From contig LIUI01000155.1 in the NCBI GenBank assembly GCA_001462235.1, positions 1,766 to 65,765 on the forward strand: a stretch of DNA of 64,000 nt, given 5' to 3'. Position 1 is the first letter of the stretch; every line of letters starts with the position of its first letter. Positions 195 through 37,649 of this stretch are shown in pieces. The DNA is from Fibrobacteria bacterium GUT307. Lineage in GTDB: Bacteria > Fibrobacterota > Fibrobacteria > Fibrobacterales > Fibrobacteraceae. The notes under the pieces are model-generated. The model saw only the letters and a list, made by a program, of their open reading frames with translations, was not told the DNA's origin and made no database searches. A program made the translations under genes and the position numbers.

Positions 195-389
195 TTTCTG
201 CTCTGCCGGGCGGCAACGGCAACTCGGATGGCAGTTTCAACAATGTTGGCAACAACGGCAACTGGTGGAGTGCCAGCGAGAACAATAGCAACAACGCCTA
301 CAACAGGAACATGAACTACAACAACGACAACGCGAACTACAACAACAACAATAAGAACAACTTGTACTCTGTTCGTTGTTTGCAGGACT
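195..389 (+). repeat. DGR template repeat (TR)
   Basis: 195 nt matching 32167-32361 with 23 mismatches, all at TR adenines. Contains 21 AAC codons in the frame of the target gene. Lies directly 5' of a DGR-type RT. Confidence 0.93.
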
Positions 390-1489
390 GTAACGGGGAA
401 GCGGTAGGGGCGTTGCATGCAACGCCCCTACAGGCTTCCCCTATCTTTTTGGAGTTGCACAGAGCCTACCTAGATGCCCGTAAACACAAACGCAATACAA
501 TAAATCAACTTAAATTTGAACGCCGTTTAGAAGTGGAATTGCTTTCTCTTTGCAAAGAGCTTGAAACCCATACTTACGAGCTTAAGCCGGGAATATGCTT
601 TATCAATGAATTGCCTGTAAAGCGTGAAATTATCGCCGCAGATTTTAGAGACAGGGTAATCCATCATTTTCTCTACAACAGGATTTATCCCGCCTTAGAC
701 AGAAAGTTTATTTACGATTCTTACAGTTGCAGGGTAGGCAAAGGAACATTGTTTGGCATAAAAAGGGTGCAAAAATTTTTGAAATCGTGCGGGGCAACGC
801 CCTGGGTTTTGCGTTTGGACATACAAGGATTTTTCATGGCTATAAACCGCAGCATCTTGTTTGATTTGATAATCAAAGGATTGCAAAATGAGATTTGCGA
901 TTTATCCAAGTTTTTAATCCGTAAAATAGTATTCAACAACCCTTTGAAAGATTCTCTTTTCAAAAGCCCAAAATCCGCTTGGAATGATTTGCCTCCGGAC
1001 AAATCCTTGATGTATTCTGCCCCAAACTGTGGCCTCCCTATAGGCAACCTAACAAGCCAGGTTTTTGCGAATGTGTATCTGAATCCCTTAGACCATTTTA
1101 TAAAAAGGGATTTAAAAATAAAGTGCTACGGCAGGTATGTTGACGACATGGTTTTAATCCACAGCGACAAGCAAATTTTGCTGAATGCAATCTTGCATAT
1201 AAGGGAATTTTTATTGAAGAAACTGAAATTGACTTTGCACCCCCGCAAAATCCGCTTGCAGCAAGCATATAAAGGCTTTGATTTTTTAGGTGCCCGCATA
1301 TCGCCTTTTTATTTAGGCCCCGGAAAACGCATTGCAGGTAATTTTTGCGAATGTATTTTTGACCCCTTGCCAAATTTTGAAAAGCAAGTGCAAAGGGTGC
1401 AGAGTTATTTGGGATTGTTGGGAAGCTTTAGCAAGCGGTGCAACATCGGGGGCATCGGAGTTCAGACAATTTTACTATGTTTACAATAA
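311..1489 (+). CDS. DGR-type reverse transcriptase
   Basis: YVDD catalytic box (YGRYVDDMVLI), PIGNLTSQVFANVYL (the DGR-typical [ILV]GxxxSQ motif) and ADFRDRVIHHFL. The ATG at 311 lies inside the TR, and there is no other ATG before the RT domain. The real start may be TTG at 449 or 455, after the hairpin. Confidence 0.9.
   Translation: MNYNNDNANYNNNNKNNLYSVRCLQDCNGEAVGALHATPLQASPIFLELHRAYLDARKHKRNTINQLKFERRLEVELLSLCKELETHTYELKPGICFINELPVKREIIAADFRDRVIHHFLYNRIYPALDRKFIYDSYSCRVGKGTLFGIKRVQKFLKSCGATPWVLRLDIQGFFMAINRSILFDLIIKGLQNEICDLSKFLIRKIVFNNPLKDSLFKSPKSAWNDLPPDKSLMYSAPNCGLPIGNLTSQVFANVYLNPLDHFIKRDLKIKCYGRYVDDMVLIHSDKQILLNAILHIREFLLKKLKLTLHPRKIRLQQAYKGFDFLGARISPFYLGPGKRIAGNFCECIFDPLPNFEKQVQRVQSYLGLLGSFSKRCNIGGIGVQTILLCLQ
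395..441. other. Long GC-rich hairpin in the TR-RT spacer
   Basis: GGGGAAGC-G-GTAGGGGCGTTGCA / TGCAACGCCCCTAC-AG-GCTTCCCC, about 22 bp of near-perfect stem. The core palindrome recurs at 11748-11775. Confidence 0.8.
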
Positions 1490-18451: not shown

Positions 18452-18961
18452 TTAATATCTCAGCCTTTTTGCAAATAAATATCTAGAATAAAAAAAAGGC
18501 TCGTCTAAGGATGAGTATTTTACCCCTTGCGAACTGGTGGCATTTGCAAATTTATTTTCTCCCATGTATATTCCAACATGGCTTACAGAATCGTTCTCCG
18601 TTTCTCCAAAAAACACCAAATCGCCCGGCAAAAGAGCATACTTTGGAACTTCAATTCCCAATTTGCTCTGCCAAACAGAATACCTTGGCAAATCAATCCC
18701 ATATATTTCATATACTTTCTTGACAAAACCCGAACAATCTATGCCATTTTCGTCGTCACCACCCAAAAGATACGGAATGCCTAAAAATGTCTCGATATGC
18801 TCTTCAAGTTCTATAGGATACCTAAAATCACTCGCTATATTTTTCCATTCGTGCTTTCCTTGAAAATAATATTCTCTCTTATTTCCACTTCCCTTTGCCG
18901 CACAAGAAAGCAGTATACAGGAAAAGGATAAAAAAACACTAATAAAGAAAATTTTCACCAC
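18452..18961 (-). CDS. NlpC/P60 (C40) peptidase lipoprotein
   Basis: Lipobox (ILLSC), catalytic GIDCSGFV, and the downstream VSHVGIY and N.. motifs. Confidence 0.8.
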   Translation of the reverse strand: MVKIFFISVFLSFSCILLSCAAKGSGNKREYYFQGKHEWKNIASDFRYPIELEEHIETFLGIPYLLGGDDENGIDCSGFVKKVYEIYGIDLPRYSVWQSKLGIEVPKYALLPGDLVFFGETENDSVSHVGIYMGENKFANATSSQGVKYSSLDEPFFYSRYLFAKRLRY

Positions 18962-18981: not shown

Positions 18982-19028
18982 AATTTACTATATTTACACC
19001 GATATGTGTTTAGATTTAACTGAGGAAG
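18982..19028 (+). promoter_or_regulatory. Promoter plus conserved leader of the first T6SS-linked transcription unit
   Basis: AATTTACTATATTTACA...TGTGTTTAGATTTAACTGAGGAAG. Homologous to 22053-22100. Confidence 0.55.
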
Positions 19029-19534
19029 CTCCACGGCAGGGAGTGGGAGTATTATTCGGAATATTATTTGCTGTTTGGGGATTTTTTTCGCCATATTTGT
19101 ACGCAAATGAGCTTTATGGGCAAGCTTCACTTAGAGCATTGCAGGGCGTTGAAGTTTTTGTGCATTTATCCGGTGACCCAGAAATTAAAAAAATGGAAAA
19201 TGAAATAAAAAGCAGGTTAAAAACAAGACTTGAATATGTTAAAGTGCCTATAATCCCCTACAACAAGCTAAACGATATAGGTGATAAAATATCAAATAGC
19301 GGGGCGCTTAAATTTTTTATGACCGGTTTTAAACAAAAAGATGGCGACTATGTTATTTATGCAACTTTGCAATTACACCAAAGGGCATATTTGGCTATAA
19401 GCCACGAATATATGGATTGCCAAACTTGGGATAGATGGAAAATGGGTGTTTTTAAAGATGTTCAATTCTATTTAGAAGTAGAAGACATGATAAGGGATTT
19501 CGCAAATGATTTTATTGCAGCAACTGGATTTTAA
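19004..19534 (+). CDS. Hypothetical secreted protein, first gene of the T6SS-linked unit
   Basis: ORF with signal-like segment (VLFGILFAVWGFFSPYLYA). The true start may be GTG at 19043, 15 nt after GAGGAAG. Confidence 0.45.
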   Translation: MCLDLTEEAPRQGVGVLFGILFAVWGFFSPYLYANELYGQASLRALQGVEVFVHLSGDPEIKKMENEIKSRLKTRLEYVKVPIIPYNKLNDIGDKISNSGALKFFMTGFKQKDGDYVIYATLQLHQRAYLAISHEYMDCQTWDRWKMGVFKDVQFYLEVEDMIRDFANDFIAATGF

Positions 19535-19982
19535 GTTAGCAACCAAGCTCCTGATATTCCTGATAGTCGGGATTCAGGCCGCTTTTGCTATTCAGATAGA
19601 GGCGCCTAAAGAAATTGAGGAGCATGTTTTGGCATACTCAAACGAAGCAGGAGCAGAAAATATGAATGCTACTTTAAGGGTTAGCATCATAAAAAAAATA
19701 AATTGCAAGGCTTTTGCTATGAAACTTATAGATAAAAGCAAAGGAAAAACCCTCAAAGAAACAGAGCGTTGCTTTACCGAATTTCCGAATTCCGCTTTGC
19801 AAAACGGAATTTTTGAACTTTTTGGGCACAAGGTAAATACAGAAACCGAATTGAGCGAATATACAAAAACGGTTTTATTCGGAATAGGCTTTGCGGCGAC
19901 GGGGGCTTTGCTCTATTATTCAAAGCAGCCAAAGCCGGTTTACGGGTACAGCAAAAATAAAATTTCAGAGGTTGCCGAATGA
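19506..19982 (+). CDS. Hypothetical membrane protein, T6SS-linked
   Basis: N-terminal signal/TM and C-terminal TM (VLFGIGFAATGALLYY). Overlaps tssK start (ATGA). Confidence 0.45.
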   Translation: MILLQQLDFKLATKLLIFLIVGIQAAFAIQIEAPKEIEEHVLAYSNEAGAENMNATLRVSIIKKINCKAFAMKLIDKSKGKTLKETERCFTEFPNSALQNGIFELFGHKVNTETELSEYTKTVLFGIGFAATGALLYYSKQPKPVYGYSKNKISEVAE

Positions 19983-21211
19983 CCATGTTAGTTGCTTGGA
20001 AAGAGGGGATGGCTTTGTCGCAGCAACACCTGCAACAATCGGATAAATTTATCCTTGGGCATATAAAAAATGTTTCTGGTTTGCCAAAAGGAATGCATTT
20101 TGGTTTTAGCAAGTTGATATTTGAAGAAGACTTGATAAAAGACGGACAATTTGCGCTTAAAGAATGTGAAGCTGTTTTTCCAAGCGGAATTTCTTTTATT
20201 GATTACGAAAGTAAATCAGTAAAAATAGAAGCTAGAAATTTTACCCAAATTTTTGACAAGAGCTTGAATAGCCTTAATGTGTATTTGGCTTTGGATTTGA
20301 ATAAGCCAATTGAATTTTCCGAAGAGCACACTTCTCGTTTCAAGGTTGTGTGGGAAAATTGCTGGGATTTGTATTCTACAGAAAATTCAGTGCTTATACC
20401 AGTTTCCATTCCGGTTCCTTCTGTTGTTTTTGACGGGGAGTCTTTAGACGGAAAGGAATTTTTGCCGATTGCAAGGCTTTTGAGAAATTTGCAAGGCTCT
20501 TTTGAGCTAGATAAAAATTTTTATCCGCCTTTAATATCCTTGAACGGTTACGAATATTTTTCGCAAAAATTAAAATATTTTGATGCGCTTTTGCAAGGCA
20601 GAATAGCAAACATTTCTTATTCAAAAGAATTATTGCTTAAAGATTTAAAAACCTTAAGAGTGGCTTTGGGTTGTATGCAAGGCACGGATGGAGTATTGCC
20701 TTTCTTGCTTTTTTGTGAAATAGCGAAATGTTTGCAAGAGCCGTTTAATTATAATCATGCAGAATTTGACAAATGTTTCGGTAAAATCTTCACTGCATTA
20801 AACGATTTTTTATTATCCGAGAAAAAAGTTGCATTTTTGCAAAAACGCTTGCAAAAAGAAGGGCCAAGTTCATTTTTTGCAAATCTGGCAGATTTGGATA
20901 TTTCAAATGCCACTTCTGTTTGGCTTGCGGTGGAATCTAAATTATCACCGGAAGAAGCTATTAAATTTATTCCTATGCAACTTAAAATTGCTCCTAAGTC
21001 AAAATTATCCGGCATAGTTGTTAGTGCAACGCATGGCATAAACTGCATTCACAGCATTGTTCCAAAAACCATTCAAGAGATGCCCGGAACATTTTATTTT
21101 AAGCTGCAAACGGATTCTTCTCTTTGGAAAAGTTTATGCGAAGAAAGAGAACTCGGCATTTACGCACCAATAACATTGCGGGTGGATTCCATAGATATCA
21201 TAAAGGTGTAG
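19979..21211 (+). CDS. tssK: Type VI secretion baseplate protein TssK
   Basis: N-terminal WKEGMALSQQHLQQSD matches the TssK signature W.EG..L.PQHFQQ.D. Length 410 aa. Confidence 0.8.
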   Translation: MTMLVAWKEGMALSQQHLQQSDKFILGHIKNVSGLPKGMHFGFSKLIFEEDLIKDGQFALKECEAVFPSGISFIDYESKSVKIEARNFTQIFDKSLNSLNVYLALDLNKPIEFSEEHTSRFKVVWENCWDLYSTENSVLIPVSIPVPSVVFDGESLDGKEFLPIARLLRNLQGSFELDKNFYPPLISLNGYEYFSQKLKYFDALLQGRIANISYSKELLLKDLKTLRVALGCMQGTDGVLPFLLFCEIAKCLQEPFNYNHAEFDKCFGKIFTALNDFLLSEKKVAFLQKRLQKEGPSSFFANLADLDISNATSVWLAVESKLSPEEAIKFIPMQLKIAPKSKLSGIVVSATHGINCIHSIVPKTIQEMPGTFYFKLQTDSSLWKSLCEERELGIYAPITLRVDSIDIIKV

Positions 21212-21213
21212 GG

Positions 21214-21951
21214 TTAATCCTTTATGCAACGGACGGAAAGTAAATTAGTTTTTTTACCATTGTTATCATTTCTTATAGCATCGTAATCATGTAATATTCG
21301 CTTGTAATGAGCCTCACCACTTGACTCCGTAGCACTCCACCAATAACCTATGTCACCTATATCATCTAAAAAGTTACCTCCAGGCAATGCCGAAAAACCG
21401 TAATCGTTTGTACCCGTGTTAGTAGTCCAAAGATCATCATTTGCTTTTAATGCTTTTCCTGCTATTTCTGTACCGCCAACGGTTGTTATTAATGCTTCCC
21501 AGTCGGTATCATCTGGCAACTTCCAACCAATGGTAGAACAAGCAGCAGTTGCGTCTATCCAATTATACAATCTTCCGTAAATATCGCAGTTACTTTCTAT
21601 GTCACCATAACATTTACTACTTGCAGTCGCTATATTCAAGTTCTTTGCCATCCAAATTTGGTTACCTATTGTCACCCCAACAATACCATCATCACATGCC
21701 ATATATTTGGGGTCATAAGCTACTGTTCCGCATAATGCTTTAGGCCATCTGGCTTTTTCAATGTTTCCGCATTTAATTACAAATTCGGTACCATCTTCAT
21801 AAGCATCGCAACTTTGCCCATCTTTTCCATTTGTGCCTGGAGAGCCAGCTGCTTTTACACCTGTATCTACATTGTCAATAAGCCAATTGCCGTTACTGCC
21901 AATGGTTACAACGCTGCCAGATACACCCGGCAGACCTGGCTCACCAGGCAA
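21214..21951 (-). pseudogene. 5'-truncated gene fragment: collagen-like Gly-X-Y stretch plus FISUMP domain
   Basis: Frame opens right after a TAA with no ATG/GTG and no signal peptide. It begins mid collagen repeat (QPGLPGEPGLPGVSGS). The C-terminus carries YGRLYNW, GW.LP, GFSALPGG, YWWS and SVRCIKD FISUMP motifs. Confidence 0.6.
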
Positions 21952-22114: not shown

Positions 22115-23947
22115 ATGAGAAAATCTTTTATTGAGCTTTCTGAAAACATTTTTTGTTCCGTGCTTTTACTGCCGTGCGATAAAGAAATTTCGGCAGAAGA
22201 AACCAAAGGCGATTTTATAGAAAAAATAAAGGAATTTTGCAATGATTCCACAAATAACGGTTACACTGCAGGTGAAATAGAAAACGCTAAATATGCTTTG
22301 TGTGCATGGATAGACGAATATATTTACACAAATTCCGCTATATCTTCACAATGGTTTTCGCATTCCCTTGCTTTGAGCGAATTTGAAGATGCCGAAGCCG
22401 GAATACATTTTTTTGAAAGAATTGAAAATTTTCATAAAAATAAAAACTCAACTCCTTTGCTTGAATTGTATGTAAAATGCATTCTGTTTGGCTTTATGGG
22501 CAAGTTCAGAATAGGAAGCACGGCAGAGTTAAAACAAATTTTAAATTCTGCAATTTCTAAAACAAGTATGTTTTTAGATAAAATAAATTATAAACCCATA
22601 ACAAAAAACAAACACCTATTTTCATTTAGGCGAGGCATAAAAAATATCCTAATAACAGGATTTTACGAAGATAAATGTAAAAGTTCAGCAAAAACACAGG
22701 AACCACCAAAAGGGTACAAATATATATATTCCGATATGAAAAATATAGAAGAATTACCCTTTATTGACGGTATTATTTCAATAAATCCTTTATTTGAAGA
22801 AAAAGACCAAACCGAATCTTTAGAAAAGCTTTTCTCAAAGCAAAAATGCAAAATACCGCTTTATGCCGTGGCAGATTTGGAAATTCAGGAATTTGACCAG
22901 ACGTTGGATAAAAATTACGAATTTAACAGCAATCATTTGAATTACTATTTGCACAAATATTTCTTGGACGAAATTGCCTGCAAAAAGATTCTCTCCTTGC
23001 CTAGAAAATTGAAACAATTTAAAGAGACAGAAGCTTTTTATTCGTTGCCATTTTTTCCATTCATGAAAAATGAAAAACCACTTGCGTACAGCTTAGCTAA
23101 GAGAGTATTTTTTATTTTGCTTTTGGTTGCGCTTGTATTGGCTATTTTATTTTTTGTATTCTCTATTATTAATCAGCATAAAGAAGAAATCAAATCTGAG
23201 GCAATGCTTATATTGCAAAAAAGCAAACTTGATAGCATAAAAGCAGCAGAAGATAGCATGAGAGCAGCCGAAGACAGTGTTAAAGCCATGCGAGATAGCA
23301 TTAAAGCCGCGGAAGATAGCCTGAATCTTGAATTTGAAAAAAATCTTAAAAACTTAGAACTTAAATATCAAAAGCAAATTTTAGAGAAATTCCCTTTTAA
23401 GGAGGGTAAAATCCCGTCTGTAGGCGAAGTTAGCGATTATTTTGGCAAGGAGAGCGATTTTTACAAATTCCTTGACATGATAGACACAATTTCCGATGAT
23501 AGGATAAAATTCAACAAAAAAACTTTAGCTACGCTTTCGCTTCTAAAAAATAACACTTGGAGCGGCATTCCTATTAGTATAACTATTCAGGCTCCAAAAA
23601 TGGCATCCGTGACATTTGGGTTAGATAGTCAATATGTGGAAATTGAGCGTGGAAAAAGCAAAACAATAGAAATAGTTTTCCCGCAGAAAAGCAAAGGTGG
23701 CATTGAGATTGTAGCAAAAACAGCGAACAATATTTTTAGTGAAAATATCCGTGGCGAATGGAGTTTGCTTAAAATCCAAGATAGGCATGTATTTTCCTTC
23801 ATAGATAAAAGCTATTCGATTGATGTAGAATTAAACATTCGTTGGTATTTGCCAAAGGATGCTATAAAACCAAATGACTGGTTTAAACTCCGCATGGAGC
23901 CAAATTTAATAGAGAATTCCCGTTTAACCAATAACCTAGGAGAGTAG
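22115..23947 (+). CDS. tssL: TssL/DotU-like T6SS membrane protein with long extension (possible TssM-like periplasmic region)
   Basis: DotU motifs (YALCAWIDEYI, GIHFFERIE, LELYVKCILFGFMGKFR). Single TM at about residue 335 (FFILLLVALVLAILFFVF). AAEDS[MV][KR]A repeats. C-terminal FPF...EVSDYFG...F.KFL segment. Confidence 0.7.
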   Translation: MRKSFIELSENIFCSVLLLPCDKEISAEETKGDFIEKIKEFCNDSTNNGYTAGEIENAKYALCAWIDEYIYTNSAISSQWFSHSLALSEFEDAEAGIHFFERIENFHKNKNSTPLLELYVKCILFGFMGKFRIGSTAELKQILNSAISKTSMFLDKINYKPITKNKHLFSFRRGIKNILITGFYEDKCKSSAKTQEPPKGYKYIYSDMKNIEELPFIDGIISINPLFEEKDQTESLEKLFSKQKCKIPLYAVADLEIQEFDQTLDKNYEFNSNHLNYYLHKYFLDEIACKKILSLPRKLKQFKETEAFYSLPFFPFMKNEKPLAYSLAKRVFFILLLVALVLAILFFVFSIINQHKEEIKSEAMLILQKSKLDSIKAAEDSMRAAEDSVKAMRDSIKAAEDSLNLEFEKNLKNLELKYQKQILEKFPFKEGKIPSVGEVSDYFGKESDFYKFLDMIDTISDDRIKFNKKTLATLSLLKNNTWSGIPISITIQAPKMASVTFGLDSQYVEIERGKSKTIEIVFPQKSKGGIEIVAKTANNIFSENIRGEWSLLKIQDRHVFSFIDKSYSIDVELNIRWYLPKDAIKPNDWFKLRMEPNLIENSRLTNNLGE

Positions 23948-23948
23948 A

Positions 23949-24446
23949 ATGGCGAACAGTTATCAAAACGAGATCCCGCCCGCACGAATAAATATCCAAT
24001 TAAACGTGGATACGGGCGGAGCACAGAAAAAAATGGAACTTCCACTGAAGTTGCTGGTACTTGGCGATTTTAAAATGGATGGCGATGAGTCCAGACTTAT
24101 GGAACGGGAAAAGATAAACATAAATAAGGATAATTTTGATGGGGTTATGCAGTCTATGAATATAGAATTGAAAACTTCCGTTGAAAATCGCCTCAAAAAA
24201 GACGATTCAGAAATGCCCATAGAATTAAAATTCGACAGCATGAAATCCTTTGAGCCTATGGAGATAGTGAAACAAGTTCCCGATTTGAATCGCTTAATGG
24301 CTGTTCGCAATTTGATAAAAGATTTGGGTTCAAATTTACTGGACAATAGAGAATTCAGAAAAAAAATGGAAGCTATTTTGAAAGACAAAAATTCCATGAA
24401 TTCTGTTTTAACCGAACTCAAAGCAATACCGAGTGATAAGGAGTAG
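23949..24446 (+). CDS. tssB: T6SS contractile sheath small subunit TssB
   Basis: EIPPARINIQLNV...KKMELPLKLLVLGDF matches the TssB/VipA N-terminal signature. Confidence 0.9.
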   Translation: MANSYQNEIPPARINIQLNVDTGGAQKKMELPLKLLVLGDFKMDGDESRLMEREKININKDNFDGVMQSMNIELKTSVENRLKKDDSEMPIELKFDSMKSFEPMEIVKQVPDLNRLMAVRNLIKDLGSNLLDNREFRKKMEAILKDKNSMNSVLTELKAIPSDKE

Positions 24447-24454
24447 GAGGATAT

Positions 24455-25936
24455 ATGGAAGACACTCAGCTTTCTTCAATTTATAAGAGTGTAAATTTGG
24501 ATTTGCCGTCTAAGTTTATAGACCTTTCAGAGTTTAGCGACGAAACATCGCTTTCCAAGTATAGCCCTAGCGAGCGAATAAGTTCGGGTCTTAAGGCGTT
24601 TGTGCAGAGTGTTTTAGACAGTTCTGCAAGCGTAGAAAAAATAGACCGTGCCTTTATAGATTCGCTTGTGGCGTGGATAGATAAAATAGTGAGCGAACAA
24701 CTGGATGCAATTATGCACAGCACAGAATTTCAGAAATTGGAATCTTCTTGGCGTGCTTTGCATTTTTTGGTTCAACGCACCAATTTTAGAAAAAATGTAA
24801 AGATAGAATTGATAAATGCAGACAAAGAATCTATAAAATATGATTTTGAAGATTCGCCAGAAATCATTCAAAGCGGCCTTTACCGTCATATTTACAGCGA
24901 TGAGTACGATACTCCGGGTGGCGAGCCTTATGCTGCGATGATAGCAAATTATGAATTTGATAACTCCGCAGACGATATTGACCTTTTGCAAAACATATCT
25001 TGTGTTTCTGCCGCTTCGCATTGCTTGTTTGTTTCTTCCGTAGGGTCTAAATTTTTTGGAAAATCGGATATTGGCGATTTGCCAAAAATAGATGATTTAG
25101 AAAACTTTATGGAAAAAGCAGAATACACAAAATGGCGTGGATTCCGCAAAACAGACGATTCTCGCTATATAGGCCTAACTTTGCCTAGATTTTTGTTGAG
25201 GAATCCTTATGGCGAGGGCAAGAGTGCCAGGGGTTTTAAATATACGGAGTCTGTTCTGGGCGGAGAGCACGAAAAATATTTGTGGGGAAACTCGGCATTT
25301 GCTTTTGCCGCAAATATGGTTCGTTCTTTCCAAGATAATGGTTGGTGCGTTCAAATCAGAGGCCCGGAGAGTGGTGGCAAAGTTGAAGATTTGCCAATAC
25401 ATCTCTTTAACTCTGGCAAAGGAGCGCAAACAAAAATCCCAACGGAAATTTTGATTCCTGAAACCCGTGAATTTGAATTTGCAAAGCAGGGCTTTATTCC
25501 GCTGAGTTTTTACAAAAACCGCAATTATGCTTGTTTTTTCTCGGCGAATTCCACTCAAAGGCCAGAAGAATACGATGATGCACAGGCTACCGCAAACTCA
25601 AGGGTGAATTCTCGTTTGCCTTATATATTCCTTACCGCAAGGCTTGCGCATTACCTAAAAGTTTTGCAGAGAGAGAATATTGGAGCAAGCAAGAGCGCGG
25701 GCATTTTGGAAGCGGAACTTAACAACTGGATAAAAGGGCTTGTGACGGAAATGGAAAATCCAGGTCCAGAGCTTGCAGCAACTCATCCTTTGAGTTATGG
25801 GCAAGTGACGGTTGCCGAGAATCCAGATAATCCCGGATTTTTCAAGGTTGCTCTTTCCGTTGTTCCACATTTCCAGGTAGAAGGCGTGAATGTGAATTTG
25901 TCATTGGTGTCTAAGATGCCAGCGGCAAAGCAGTAG
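24455..25936 (+). CDS. tssC: T6SS contractile sheath large subunit TssC
   Basis: F.KLESSWRALHFLV, LYRHIYSDEYDTPGGEPYAAMIANYEF and SAASHCLFVSS match conserved TssC/VipB blocks. Confidence 0.9.
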   Translation: MEDTQLSSIYKSVNLDLPSKFIDLSEFSDETSLSKYSPSERISSGLKAFVQSVLDSSASVEKIDRAFIDSLVAWIDKIVSEQLDAIMHSTEFQKLESSWRALHFLVQRTNFRKNVKIELINADKESIKYDFEDSPEIIQSGLYRHIYSDEYDTPGGEPYAAMIANYEFDNSADDIDLLQNISCVSAASHCLFVSSVGSKFFGKSDIGDLPKIDDLENFMEKAEYTKWRGFRKTDDSRYIGLTLPRFLLRNPYGEGKSARGFKYTESVLGGEHEKYLWGNSAFAFAANMVRSFQDNGWCVQIRGPESGGKVEDLPIHLFNSGKGAQTKIPTEILIPETREFEFAKQGFIPLSFYKNRNYACFFSANSTQRPEEYDDAQATANSRVNSRLPYIFLTARLAHYLKVLQRENIGASKSAGILEAELNNWIKGLVTEMENPGPELAATHPLSYGQVTVAENPDNPGFFKVALSVVPHFQVEGVNVNLSLVSKMPAAKQ

Positions 25937-25937
25937 T

Positions 25938-27236
25938 TTACACTATAGCCGCAATTTCCTTCATTGCGGCTTCCGTGTCTTCGTATTTTGAACTCTCGCC
26001 TATGCCTTGAATCAAAAATTTATCCAATGCGGCGTGCCTTTTAATAGAAACATCTATTTCTGGGTCTGAACCTTTTGCGTATGCACCTATGTTTATCAAA
26101 TCCTCGTTTTTGCGATAAGTTGCAAGGCTTCGCAAAAGGGTTGCAGATAGTTCTTTTAGTTGCGGGTTTGCTATATCTGTGCGGCAACGGCTTATGCTTG
26201 CCAAAACATCTACGGCAGGGTAGTGGTTTTTGTTTGCAAGCGCACGAGAAAGCACTATATGCCCGTCTAAAATGGAACGGACAGCGTCTGCTATAGGGTC
26301 TTCCAAATCATCGCCGTCCACCAGAACAGTGTAAAGCCCTGTAATGCTTCCTTTGTCGCTATTGCCAGACCGCTCAAATAACTTTGGCAAAAAGGCAAAA
26401 ACAGATGGGGTGTAACCCTTTGTTGCGGGTGGCTCGCCAACTGCCAAACCTATTTCTCTTTGCGCCATTGCAAGGCGTGTGCTTGAATCCATCAAAAAAA
26501 ATACATCATCGCCGGAGTCCCTGAAAAACTCCGCTATGCTCATAGCTAAAAAACTCGCCTTTAAGCGGACAAGGGCGGGTTGGTCGCTGGTTGCAACTAT
26601 TACCACGGAACGCTTTAATCCTTCCGGGCCTAAATCTTTTTCTATGAATTCCCTCACTTCCCTGCCACGTTCTCCGATTAAAGCAATTACATTTACTTTT
26701 GCAAGGCAGTTCCTCGCTATCATGCCCATGGTAACGCTTTTGCCAACTCCGGAACCGGCAAAAATCCCCATTCTTTGCCCGCGCCCAATGGTTAAAAAAC
26801 CATCTATGGCCCTAATCCCTGTGTACATGGGTTCTTTTATGCGTGCTCTTTGCATGGCGGTTGGGGGGCTTGAATAAATGGAGCGGCGAGCTTCGTATTT
26901 AATTTCCCCTAGGTTGTCCATTGGGTTTCCCATGCCGTCTAAAACCCTGCCCAAAAGTTGGTAACCAACGGGTGCGGTTAGCGTTTCCCCTTTTGCCACA
27001 ACAGACATTCCGGGCCTTATGCCTTCTAACACGCCAAGCGGCATGATAAGGGTTCTGGTTTCTCTAAAACCTACTACTTCTGCATGGCATACGGTTTTTC
27101 CATTTTGCTCAATAACGCAAAGTTCGCCAATGCCGGCGTTTGGCCCCTCGCATTCAATAACCAAGCCTATTATTTTCACAATGCGCCCACGCACATCTGC
27201 AAGGCGAATGCGGGAGATTTTTTCCAGCTTATTCAT
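25938..27236 (-). CDS. fliI: FliI/YscN family type III secretion ATPase
   Basis: Walker A GSGVGKS, ALIGERGREV, Walker B FFLMDSSTR and TVLVDGDD motifs. Confidence 0.9.
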   Translation of the reverse strand: MNKLEKISRIRLADVRGRIVKIIGLVIECEGPNAGIGELCVIEQNGKTVCHAEVVGFRETRTLIMPLGVLEGIRPGMSVVAKGETLTAPVGYQLLGRVLDGMGNPMDNLGEIKYEARRSIYSSPPTAMQRARIKEPMYTGIRAIDGFLTIGRGQRMGIFAGSGVGKSVTMGMIARNCLAKVNVIALIGERGREVREFIEKDLGPEGLKRSVVIVATSDQPALVRLKASFLAMSIAEFFRDSGDDVFFLMDSSTRLAMAQREIGLAVGEPPATKGYTPSVFAFLPKLFERSGNSDKGSITGLYTVLVDGDDLEDPIADAVRSILDGHIVLSRALANKNHYPAVDVLASISRCRTDIANPQLKELSATLLRSLATYRKNEDLINIGAYAKGSDPEIDVSIKRHAALDKFLIQGIGESSKYEDTEAAMKEIAAIV

Positions 27237-36387: not shown

Positions 36388-37119
36388 ATGTCTATTAACG
36401 GAACAGATGGCTTAGGAATGCGTTTGCCAAACGCTTCTTCCGATGATGCTAAAAAATGGAAGGTCGCTCAGGATTTTGAAGCGATGTTCGTGCATCAAAT
36501 GCTAAAATCCATGCGAAATACCGTGCCAAAAGACAAAGATATGAGCACCGGCAGGCGTATTTTTACAGAAATGCTAGACGAACAAATTGCAAATAAGGCA
36601 AGCCAAACAGGGAGTTTTGGTCTTGCACAGATAATTTATAAAGAATTGGCCGGCAAAAACGCAGAAGATCCGCGAAAAATCATGGCTGCTCAAGGAGCAT
36701 ACGGAGCTACGCGGGCATCTGAAAATCAAATAGAAAAATGGATTACGGAAGCATCAGAAGCTATGAGCATGGATAAAAATTTGATAAGAGCCGTAATTCG
36801 CCAAGAGAGCAGCGGAAATTCCCTTGCCCGCTCCAATAAAGGAGCAAAAGGGCTTATGCAGCTCATGGATTCCACCGCAAAAGAATTAGGGGTTGCAAAT
36901 CCCTACAATGGTCGGCAAAATGTTATGGGCGGCGTAAAATACCTAAAACAACTTTTGACCAAGTACGATGGAGATGAAAGCAAAGCCCTAGCAGCTTACA
37001 ACGCAGGCCCTGGCGCAGTTGAGCAATACGGCGGAATCCCGCCTTTTGAAGAAACCCAGAACTATGTAAAAAATGTTCTTAAATACAAGGAAGAATTTTC
37101 TCAGGAGGAGGTATTATGA
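36388..37119 (+). CDS. flgJ: Flagellar rod-assembly protein FlgJ-like: rod-binding domain fused to SLT lytic transglycosylase
   Basis: Rod_binding motif (VAQDFEAMFVHQMLKSMR). SLT motifs (ESSGN, GLMQL, AYNAGPG). Confidence 0.75.
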   Translation: MSINGTDGLGMRLPNASSDDAKKWKVAQDFEAMFVHQMLKSMRNTVPKDKDMSTGRRIFTEMLDEQIANKASQTGSFGLAQIIYKELAGKNAEDPRKIMAAQGAYGATRASENQIEKWITEASEAMSMDKNLIRAVIRQESSGNSLARSNKGAKGLMQLMDSTAKELGVANPYNGRQNVMGGVKYLKQLLTKYDGDESKALAAYNAGPGAVEQYGGIPPFEETQNYVKNVLKYKEEFSQEEVL

Positions 37120-37649
37120 ACTCAGATAAGGAATCAAAGCAGGAATTTGATACTTTGGTAATGGTGCTTGGCAAAATGAAGGAGCAATATACTCTTTACA
37201 AGGAAGTTCTTGTAAAGCAACGTCACGCCATAATAGCCAATAATACCACCGTACTAACCGAGATTATAAGCGAGATAGAAAATATTACCGAGGGCATAAA
37301 CCGTCTGGAAACTCGCCGTATTTACAACACGGAAGTTTTGGCGCGTAATGCCAATTTAAAGCTAAAAACCATCCGGGAGATAGTTAAGGCATTTCCCGAA
37401 TTTGACGGCGAAAAACTGGAAAATGTTTCTGCAGAATTGAAAAAAGAGGCTTTGGAAGTAAAAAGAATATCAGACTCCAATACGGAACTTTTGGAAATTT
37501 CACGCAGCATAGTCAAAGAAACTATGAGAACCATAATGGTTCAAGATGTTGACCCTCGCGACCGAGCTTGGCGAACCTACGGCAACAGCGGTGCCTACGC
37601 CAGAACCGTGACCAGAGCACCTATACATTTGGTGAATAGGCAAGGGTAA
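37116..37649 (+). CDS. flgN: FlgN-like flagellar chaperone
   Basis: 177-aa helical protein directly after flgJ. N-terminal pattern (L...L..........L..Q..AI) resembles FlgN. Confidence 0.5.
   Translation: MNSDKESKQEFDTLVMVLGKMKEQYTLYKEVLVKQRHAIIANNTTVLTEIISEIENITEGINRLETRRIYNTEVLARNANLKLKTIREIVKAFPEFDGEKLENVSAELKKEALEVKRISDSNTELLEISRSIVKETMRTIMVQDVDPRDRAWRTYGNSGAYARTVTRAPIHLVNRQG

Follow-up and report, generated by a model that had tools for sequence, protein, structure and literature searches.

In a type VI secretion system (T6SS), bacterial, non-phage character is confined to the TssJLM membrane complex. 'Evolved' TssL proteins are known in which a periplasmic C-terminal extension is an OmpA/peptidoglycan-binding domain, for example Yersinia YPO0514, and IcmF homologues without a Walker A motif are known from Francisella (PdpB) and Edwardsiella (EvpO). 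Current models of the membrane complex are those of the 1.7-MDa E. coli assembly, in which the TssM periplasmic pillars form a channel and a gate (PMC6517824), and a TssJ-less, non-canonical T6SS membrane complex is known from Acinetobacter (PMC10564176). In full-text searches of the literature, no natural fusion of TssL and TssM was found to be described. Here, such a fusion is reported from a 64,000-nucleotide stretch of Fibrobacteria bacterium GUT307 (contig LIUI01000155.1, positions 1,766 to 65,765 of the forward strand), hereafter the window. The gene at positions 22115..23947 encodes the cytoplasmic part of TssL joined to the outer tip of TssM in one polypeptide, and in a termite-gut bacterial family two large membrane proteins are replaced by this one small protein. 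The natural chimera is most likely the sole TssL/TssM-type subunit of a streamlined Fibromonadaceae T6SS, a reading to which we assign a probability of roughly 0.7.

The fusion gene and its parts are as follows (aa, amino acids).

22115..23947, + strand: complete tssL-tssM fusion gene, an open reading frame (ORF) of 610 aa with an ATG start
22115..22558, + strand: TssL/DotU cytoplasmic helical bundle, aa 1-148 (Pfam, TIGR03349, BLASTP, Foldseek)
22559..23104, + strand: linker, then two conserved parts, an alpha/beta domain at aa 176-305 and a juxtamembrane segment at aa 306-330 (AlphaFold2 model)
23105..23173, + strand: single transmembrane (TM) helix, aa 331-353 (Kyte-Doolittle scan)
23174..23365, + strand: periplasmic heptad-repeat stalk, aa 354-417 (Tandem Repeats Finder; homologue lengths)
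23366..23914, + strand: TssM C-terminal module, aa 418-600 (BLASTP, hhalign, Foldseek)

A GGAGG motif was located 14 nt 5' of the ATG, and a promoter and terminator scan of the fusion locus returned chance-level results only. An earlier note, made from the letters of this DNA without database searches, had read the gene as a 610-aa protein with a DotU N-terminus and a single TM helix placed later than the position near 200 in canonical TssL, and had proposed a TssL-TssM fusion without the NTPase (nucleoside triphosphatase) domain. On each of these points the note was right.

The N-terminal domain was recognised by profile thresholds as well as by structure. Pfam DotU (PF09850) matched aa 10-145 with an E value of 1e-25 and 91 bits against a cutoff of 27, and only profile positions 7-147 of 205 were covered. 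The fusion passed TIGR03349 (98.3 bits, cutoff 89.95) and failed NF038239 TssL_short (40 bits, cutoff 180), and its N-terminus was 38% identical to the 200-aa TssL of the canonical Fibrobacterota cluster L004 (E 5e-39). An AlphaFold2 (AF2) model of aa 1-332, with a predicted local distance difference test score (pLDDT) of 86, was compared with known structures in Foldseek. Its N-terminal part superposed on the TssL cytoplasmic domains of A. baumannii, E. coli, V. cholerae and Yersinia, the best match being 6y4r, the A. baumannii TssL (target-normalised TM-score 0.82, root-mean-square deviation 2.4). The fusion thus has a DotU/TssL domain by thresholds and by structural match.

The fusion is not a tail-anchored short-form TssL, in which the TM helix lies at about 180-200 with little beyond it. 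The closest canonical TssLs are 200 aa long with the TM helix at about 178-198. In the fusion, the only hydrophobic 19-mer segment with a Kyte-Doolittle mean above 1.6 was found at aa 331-353, and 257 periplasmic residues follow it. No signal peptide is present, and K/R residues stand on the N-terminal side of the TM helix.

The fusion C-terminus is homologous to the last ~220 residues of TssM, that is, to IcmF_helical and IcmF_C. In BLASTP, fusion residues 418-599 aligned with residues 918-1135 of TssM P0050 (1137 aa) over 218 columns at 31% identity (E 3e-23). When the family was aligned with eight TssMs by hhalign, the probability was 99.7% and the E value 2e-25, and the match was confined to TssM residues 917-1136. 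The motif columns coincided, FPF...YF...F with YPF...YF...F and GEWSLLK with GEWGVLK, the latter block being GEWxxLK in canonical TssMs. The module starts with a helical subdomain, which carries the YPF motif; a C2-like beta-sandwich (IcmF_C) follows, and last comes the C-terminal tail.

The earlier note had already likened GEWSLLK to a TssM block, and the columns do align. It had also seen a YPF-like motif shared with TssM; the motif is indeed shared, although it belongs to Pfam IcmF_helical (PF21070) and not to IcmF-related or IcmF-related_N. Similarly, the C-terminal domain estimated there at about 230 aa is present, but the homologous module comprises ~183 aa (418-600) and is followed by a 10-aa tail. 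Lack of any profile or structural similarity of this region to TssM/IcmF had been named beforehand as the outcome that would tell against a fusion, and it did not occur.

A family profile of aa 400-610 was searched against 1.84 billion representative proteins. The 13 proteins found comprised three members of the family, nine TssM-type proteins and one repeat protein of 4423 aa. Seven of the nine TssM-type proteins were 1124-1184 aa long, one was a truncated protein of 925 aa and one a fragment of 135 aa; TssM-type proteins were matched at the extreme C-terminus only (E 6e-20 to 1e-6). The eight TssM-type matches that were scanned with Pfam carried IcmF-related, IcmF_helical and IcmF_C, and some also IcmF-related_N. 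In the giant repeat protein (P0059, not encoded in the window), positions 35-151 of the profile are matched by nine stretches (E 8e-6), and tandem repeats of the helical plus C2-like module therefore also occur outside T6SS membrane proteins.

The structural comparison gave the same assignment. The AF2 model of aa 400-610 (pLDDT 87.5) showed four helices followed by an eight-strand sandwich. Its nine best PDB matches in Foldseek were all TssM of enteroaggregative E. coli (EAEC), from entries 4y7m, 4y7l, 4y7o, 6ixh and 6hs7, with E values between 5e-8 and 6e-5; over ~240 columns, the TM-scores normalised to the query were 0.54-0.61. All nine ranked above generic C2 domains (cPLA2, otoferlin). 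When the C-terminal alignment was searched against PDB chains as a sequence profile, no TssM was returned and EF-P was the sole match (E 1.3); for HMMER, E. coli TssM is too distant a homologue, and Foldseek or closer TssMs were needed. Pfam IcmF_C (PF06744) was sub-threshold on residues 493-559 of the single sequence (E 4.3e-4, 20.9 bits against 26.7), and it was matched by 40 of the 45 near-full-length family members at E<=0.01, the best value being 5e-6.

The remainder of TssM is reduced or gone. The three-TM layout of TssM, with a P-loop NTPase-type domain between TM2 and TM3, is not found in the fusion, and no match to IcmF-related (PF06761) was obtained at E<=10. Between the TM helix and the C-terminal module there are just 64 residues. 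The fusion keeps only the distal quarter of the periplasmic domain of TssM and has lost the PF06761 part.

The 64 residues after the TM helix form the stalk. Tandem Repeats Finder detected a repeat with a period of 21 nt and 4.3 copies at 23231-23320, corresponding to five xDS[IMVL][KR]A[AM] heptads at aa 373-402. Repeats after the TM helix had been pointed out before; they are real, but the unit is a heptad and not an 8-mer. Residues 401-423 were modelled by AF2 as a single long helix. Across 45 homologues the stalk segment varies from 25 to 93 aa by gain and loss of heptads.

The region between the TssL domain and the TM helix was modelled as four beta-alpha units followed by three helices (aa 176-305; AF2, pLDDT 86). 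In Foldseek it had no significant PDB match, only generic alpha/beta folds being returned at E>0.1. It stands at the position of the TssM cytoplasmic domain, and hhalign paired IDGIISINP...KIPLYAV (fusion 217-252) with IDAVVLVNP...DLPLYAL (TssM 188-231) at a score of 22.8. In 100 column shuffles for this match, the mean score was 12.9 (standard deviation 2.5) and the maximum 19.6, so that all were below 22.8. Moreover, a weak collinear hhalign match linked fusion aa 312-352, comprising the pre-TM segment and the TM helix, to TssM 373-418 around TM3. These faint sequence similarities suggest that the middle domain may conceivably be what is left of a TssM cytoplasmic domain that has shrunk.

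No Walker A motif ([AG]xxxxGK[ST]) was found anywhere in the fusion, nor any PF14331 match. A functional NTPase was ruled out as an assignment for the middle domain, which has no Walker A and whose beta1-alpha1 loop of ~2 residues is too short for a P-loop; a comparison with TssA was also negative. The ten closest canonical TssMs have no Walker A either, and two Pseudomonas-type TssMs have GPxGSGKT. Among the TssMs of the L004-L006 lineage, P0050, P0051, P0053, P0055-P0058 and P0060 have no Walker A where it would be expected, so that the loss of NTPase activity probably predates the fusion.

The fusion is not confined to this window. Homologues at 51-100% identity fell into 47 clusters, of which 45 were near full length (526-641 aa, 51-86% identity) and two were shorter fragments. 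All came from Fibromonadaceae/Fibromonadales metagenome-assembled genomes (MAGs) or from unlabelled or termite-type metagenomes, and the Fibromonadaceae are flagellated termite-gut Fibrobacterota (PMC4704652). In public records these proteins are named only as 'DotU family'. Some 35 loci with the fusion, from GTDB genomes, JGI, ENA, Logan and NCBI, were read, some contigs twice and the most divergent member included. They showed the order tssK-fusion-tssB-tssC, often with overlapping genes, between housekeeping flanks, and almost every related locus read had tssK directly upstream of the fusion. One locus (L034, Ga0209755_10001195) is rearranged: a homologue of gene g151, on the other strand, is the fusion's direct upstream neighbour, no tssK match was found upstream, and NlpC/P60 lies downstream of tssC.

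In the canonical clusters L004, L005 and L006, the order is NlpC (on the minus strand), g151 for a secreted protein of ~150 aa, g205 for one of ~205 aa, tssK, tssL (200 aa), tssM (~1135 aa) and tssA; on longer contigs, canonical clusters continue with tssB, tssC, hcp, tssE and, further on, vgrG and clpV. The canonical TssM relatives with source names come from Fibrobacteria/Fibrobacterota MAGs. Between tssK and tssB, the window has one gene where the canonical clusters have tssL-tssM-tssA. A profile scan of genome contigs with a five-sequence alignment found five loci, all of the fusion type, and a second metagenome scan found 21 loci, again all fusion type with no intermediates. A metagenome scan with full TssM found nothing, its sensitivity being low. 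Searches with TssM P0050 and with an eight-sequence TssM alignment returned two and eight proteins, respectively; their prefilter was insensitive, and these numbers have no bearing on a second tssM.

Selection on the gene was estimated from seven orthologues by the Nei-Gojobori method, with a median dN (nonsynonymous divergence) of 0.20 and a near-saturated dS (synonymous divergence) of 1.8, giving a dN/dS of ~0.11. The ratio of the proportions of nonsynonymous and synonymous differences (pN/pS) was 0.27 for the DotU domain, 0.22 for the middle domain, 0.31 for the TM helix plus stalk, and 0.22 for the C-terminus. Every domain of the fusion is under purifying selection. As the constraint extends across all segments, the chimera is maintained by selection and is not an assembly artefact.

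The other genes of the window that bear on the system, or on its host, are listed here.

18452..18961, - strand: NlpC/P60 peptidoglycan hydrolase, divergent (NLPC_P60 E 2e-26; 53% to the L005 counterpart)
19004..19534, + strand: secreted ~150-aa protein (35% to g151 of L005, E 9e-28)
19506..19982, + strand: protein with a signal peptide and a C-terminal TM helix (layout of this and the preceding gene common to L001, L004, L005 and L006)
19979..21211, + strand: tssK, baseplate subunit (Pfam T6SS_VasE E 2.4e-51; TIGR03353 202.9 bits)
23949..24446, + strand: tssB, sheath small subunit (Pfam T6SS_VipA E 9e-50; 65% to L004 TssB)
24455..25936, + strand: tssC, sheath large subunit (VipB E 1.8e-122; VipB_2 E 4e-39; 72% to L005 TssC)
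25938..27236, - strand: fliI-type ATPase, flagellar, after tssC
36388..37119, + strand: flgJ-like protein with Rod-binding and SLT domains, flagellar
37116..37649, + strand: flgN, flagellar
311..1489, + strand: 392-aa ORF with a reverse-transcriptase domain (RVT_1 E 2e-16)

T6SS genes in the window are limited to tssK, the fusion, tssB and tssC. The tssB gene starts 2 nt past the fusion stop codon, and TssK is the expected cytoplasmic partner of the fusion TssL domain. Among ORFs of at least 120 aa in the window, large ones included, no tssM, tssA, hcp, vgrG, tssEFG or clpV was found. The earlier note had suggested that the fusion, if it held, would explain the missing tssM. It does occupy the tssL-tssM-tssA slot, but a missing tssM in the window alone is uninformative because the window also has no tssA, hcp, vgrG, tssEFG or clpV. 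Likewise, no tssA, hcp, tssE or vgrG was found within the 8-10 kb flanks of the fusion loci read.

Upstream of tssK, fusion-type and canonical Fibrobacterota clusters alike keep the NlpC/P60 gene and the genes for the two small envelope proteins, and an NlpC/P60 gene also lies beside the cluster in L004, L006, L012 and L013. The two small proteins had no Pfam match, T6SS-SciN included; they have signal peptides, and no lipobox was seen. Together with NlpC/P60, they may be lineage-specific accessories of the membrane complex, acting in peptidoglycan remodelling or as a TssJ substitute.

The tssK/fusion and fusion/tssB junctions are recurrent insertion points. In the window, a Fib_succ_major gene with a collagen-like N-terminus (21214-21951, - strand) splits tssK from the fusion. 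ORF6N-domain genes occupy both junctions in L001 (9459-10004 and 11736-12287) and L002, and L012, L013 and L035 have no insert. The flagellar genes are consistent with Fibromonadaceae rather than Fibrobacter as the source, and the ORF with the RVT_1 domain may be part of a group II intron, a retron or a diversity-generating retroelement.

From the gene order, the fusion looks to be derived from tssL-tssM, with tssA, three TM helices and the greater part of the periplasmic IcmF-related domain lost. An in-frame deletion would have run from the TssL tail-anchor through TM1-TM2 of TssM and joined the two cytoplasmic domains. The topology would have been kept, the chain passing from the cytoplasm through TM3 to the periplasm. 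At the junction, the TssL juxtamembrane sequence 'LPKDRHG' resembles 'TKN[KR]H[KL]F' of the fusion, just before the expected start of the TssL TM helix. The TssM cytoplasmic domain, with Walker A already lost in the lineage, would then have shrunk to ~130 aa. In a second loss, ~490 periplasmic residues would have been removed, with the heptad coiled-coil stalk in their place, and tssA would have been dropped from the locus. In E. coli TssM, the foot (382-570) and the gate loop (776-786) lie within the deleted periplasmic part (PMC6517824).

The mechanism proposed for the chimera is drawn from the established roles of TssL and TssM. The fusion would be anchored in the inner membrane by its single TM helix and oligomerise via stalk and tip, and at the inner membrane its TssL domain would dock the TssK baseplate. 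The stalk would span part of the periplasm and project the TssM tip towards the outer membrane. There, the tip would touch the membrane itself or a partner, anchoring the sheath-tube machine for firing. That a T6SS would work with the chimera as its entire membrane complex, with no pillar or channel, NTPase, TssJ or locus-encoded TssA, is a tentative proposal and somewhat doubtful.

Several observations weigh against the chimera as the sole TssL/TssM-type subunit or against its derivation. In E. coli, the deleted region is the channel and gate, and passage of the tube without it is unexplained (PMC6517824). Canonical tssM, tssA, hcp, vgrG, tssEFG and clpV may be present elsewhere in the genomes. 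No TssJ-like lipoprotein was recognised at the locus, where a remote analogue is possible. The nearly fourfold range of stalk lengths (25-93 aa) is hard to fit with a fixed ruler spanning the periplasm. The link of the middle domain to TssM was sub-significant (hhalign E 0.02-0.06) and had no structural match.

The alternative that survives best is that the fusion is an accessory or regulatory paralogue, which modulates or caps a normal complex built from canonical TssL and TssM encoded elsewhere. Since the core genes are missing from the window and from the 8-10 kb flanks, a second T6SS locus is needed if the system works, and the searches able to reveal a second tssM had low sensitivity. However, the fusion lies in the orthologous tssL-tssM slot, beside the same NlpC/P60 and small genes, and it is the sole tssL-like gene beside tssK, tssB and tssC, of which no other copies were seen. 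Moreover, the search with the C-terminal-module profile returned nine TssM-type representatives only, and the named ones were from other Fibrobacterota MAGs. We consider this alternative unlikely.

Far less probable is a decaying relic, in which the end of tssM was joined to tssL by a deletion while an ancestor was losing its T6SS, and the product has no function. Such decay would fit a cluster that is down to four tss genes, with tssA and three quarters of tssM gone, and the unrelated genes inserted at operon junctions in some genomes. It does not fit an ORF that stays intact across 45 near-full-length clusters, with identities as low as 51%, and is constrained in all domains at the dN/dS given above. 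The tssB and tssC products are still 62-74% identical to those of canonical clusters, and the genes of the fusion locus are tightly packed or overlapping.

Finally, an independently acquired, generic C2-like sandwich (convergence) or an ORF created by an assembly or frameshift error is effectively refuted: C2 domains do appear among the lower Foldseek matches, IcmF_C is sub-threshold on the single sequence and the PDB sequence-profile search had no TssM, but the BLASTP identity to one TssM extends over ~180 residues including the YPF subdomain and the tail, in agreement with hhalign, the nine top structural matches are all TssM and cover both subdomains, and the same architecture recurs in ~35 loci from independent NCBI, JGI, ENA and Logan assemblies.

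If the chimera is sufficient as a membrane complex, it would show which parts of that complex are dispensable, since nothing but the cytoplasmic domain of TssL and the tip of TssM is kept. The TssL baseplate hook and a TssM tip on a variable coiled-coil stalk would then be the minimal anchoring and firing elements, and the chimera would offer structural and synthetic studies of T6SS anchoring a small scaffold encoded by a single gene. It illustrates how deletion of three TM helices can merge stoichiometric partners with the topology unchanged. As the proteins carry the 'DotU family' label only, automated pipelines would score genomes with the fusion as having no TssM.

Compared with the known systems, the closest relatives of the fusion locus are the other Fibrobacterota T6SS (L004, L005 and L006; TssMs P0050, P0060, P0051, P0053 and P0055), with identities of 38-40% for TssL, 31% for the TssM C-terminus, 37-38% for TssK, 65-66% for TssB and 72% for TssC. 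They share with the fusion loci the NlpC/P60 gene and the small upstream genes, and their TssM, like the fusion, has no Walker A. They differ in having a separate, tail-anchored TssL of 200 aa, a three-TM TssM of ~1135 aa and tssA, and in that, on contigs that extend far enough, hcp and tssE follow in the cluster.

The TssJLM complex of EAEC Sci-1 (3u66, 4y7o, 6ixh, 6hs7; PMC6517824) has the same TssL cytoplasmic fold and family and the same TssM C-terminal module, and its locus has tssK, tssB and tssC as neighbours in common with the fusion locus. In contrast to Sci-1, the fusion is one chain and not two, has one TM helix and not four in total, and is without a Walker A NTPase. The PF06761 foot, pillar and gate are absent, with a variable heptad stalk in their place, and no TssJ is recognisable.

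In PdpB, EvpO and the Acinetobacter complex, loss of the NTPase motif or of TssJ is tolerated and the TssM C-terminus is remodelled in a lineage-specific manner. Unlike the fusion, these systems have TssL as a separate protein beside a TssM of full length, and none is described as a TssL-TssM single chain. Similar to the fusion, the 'evolved' TssL YPO0514 (7thw) consists of a TssL domain, a TM helix and an added periplasmic domain, and 7thw matches the fusion N-terminus in structure. However, the periplasmic domain of the fusion is derived from TssM and is not of the OmpA type, and ~180 extra cytoplasmic residues precede its TM helix.

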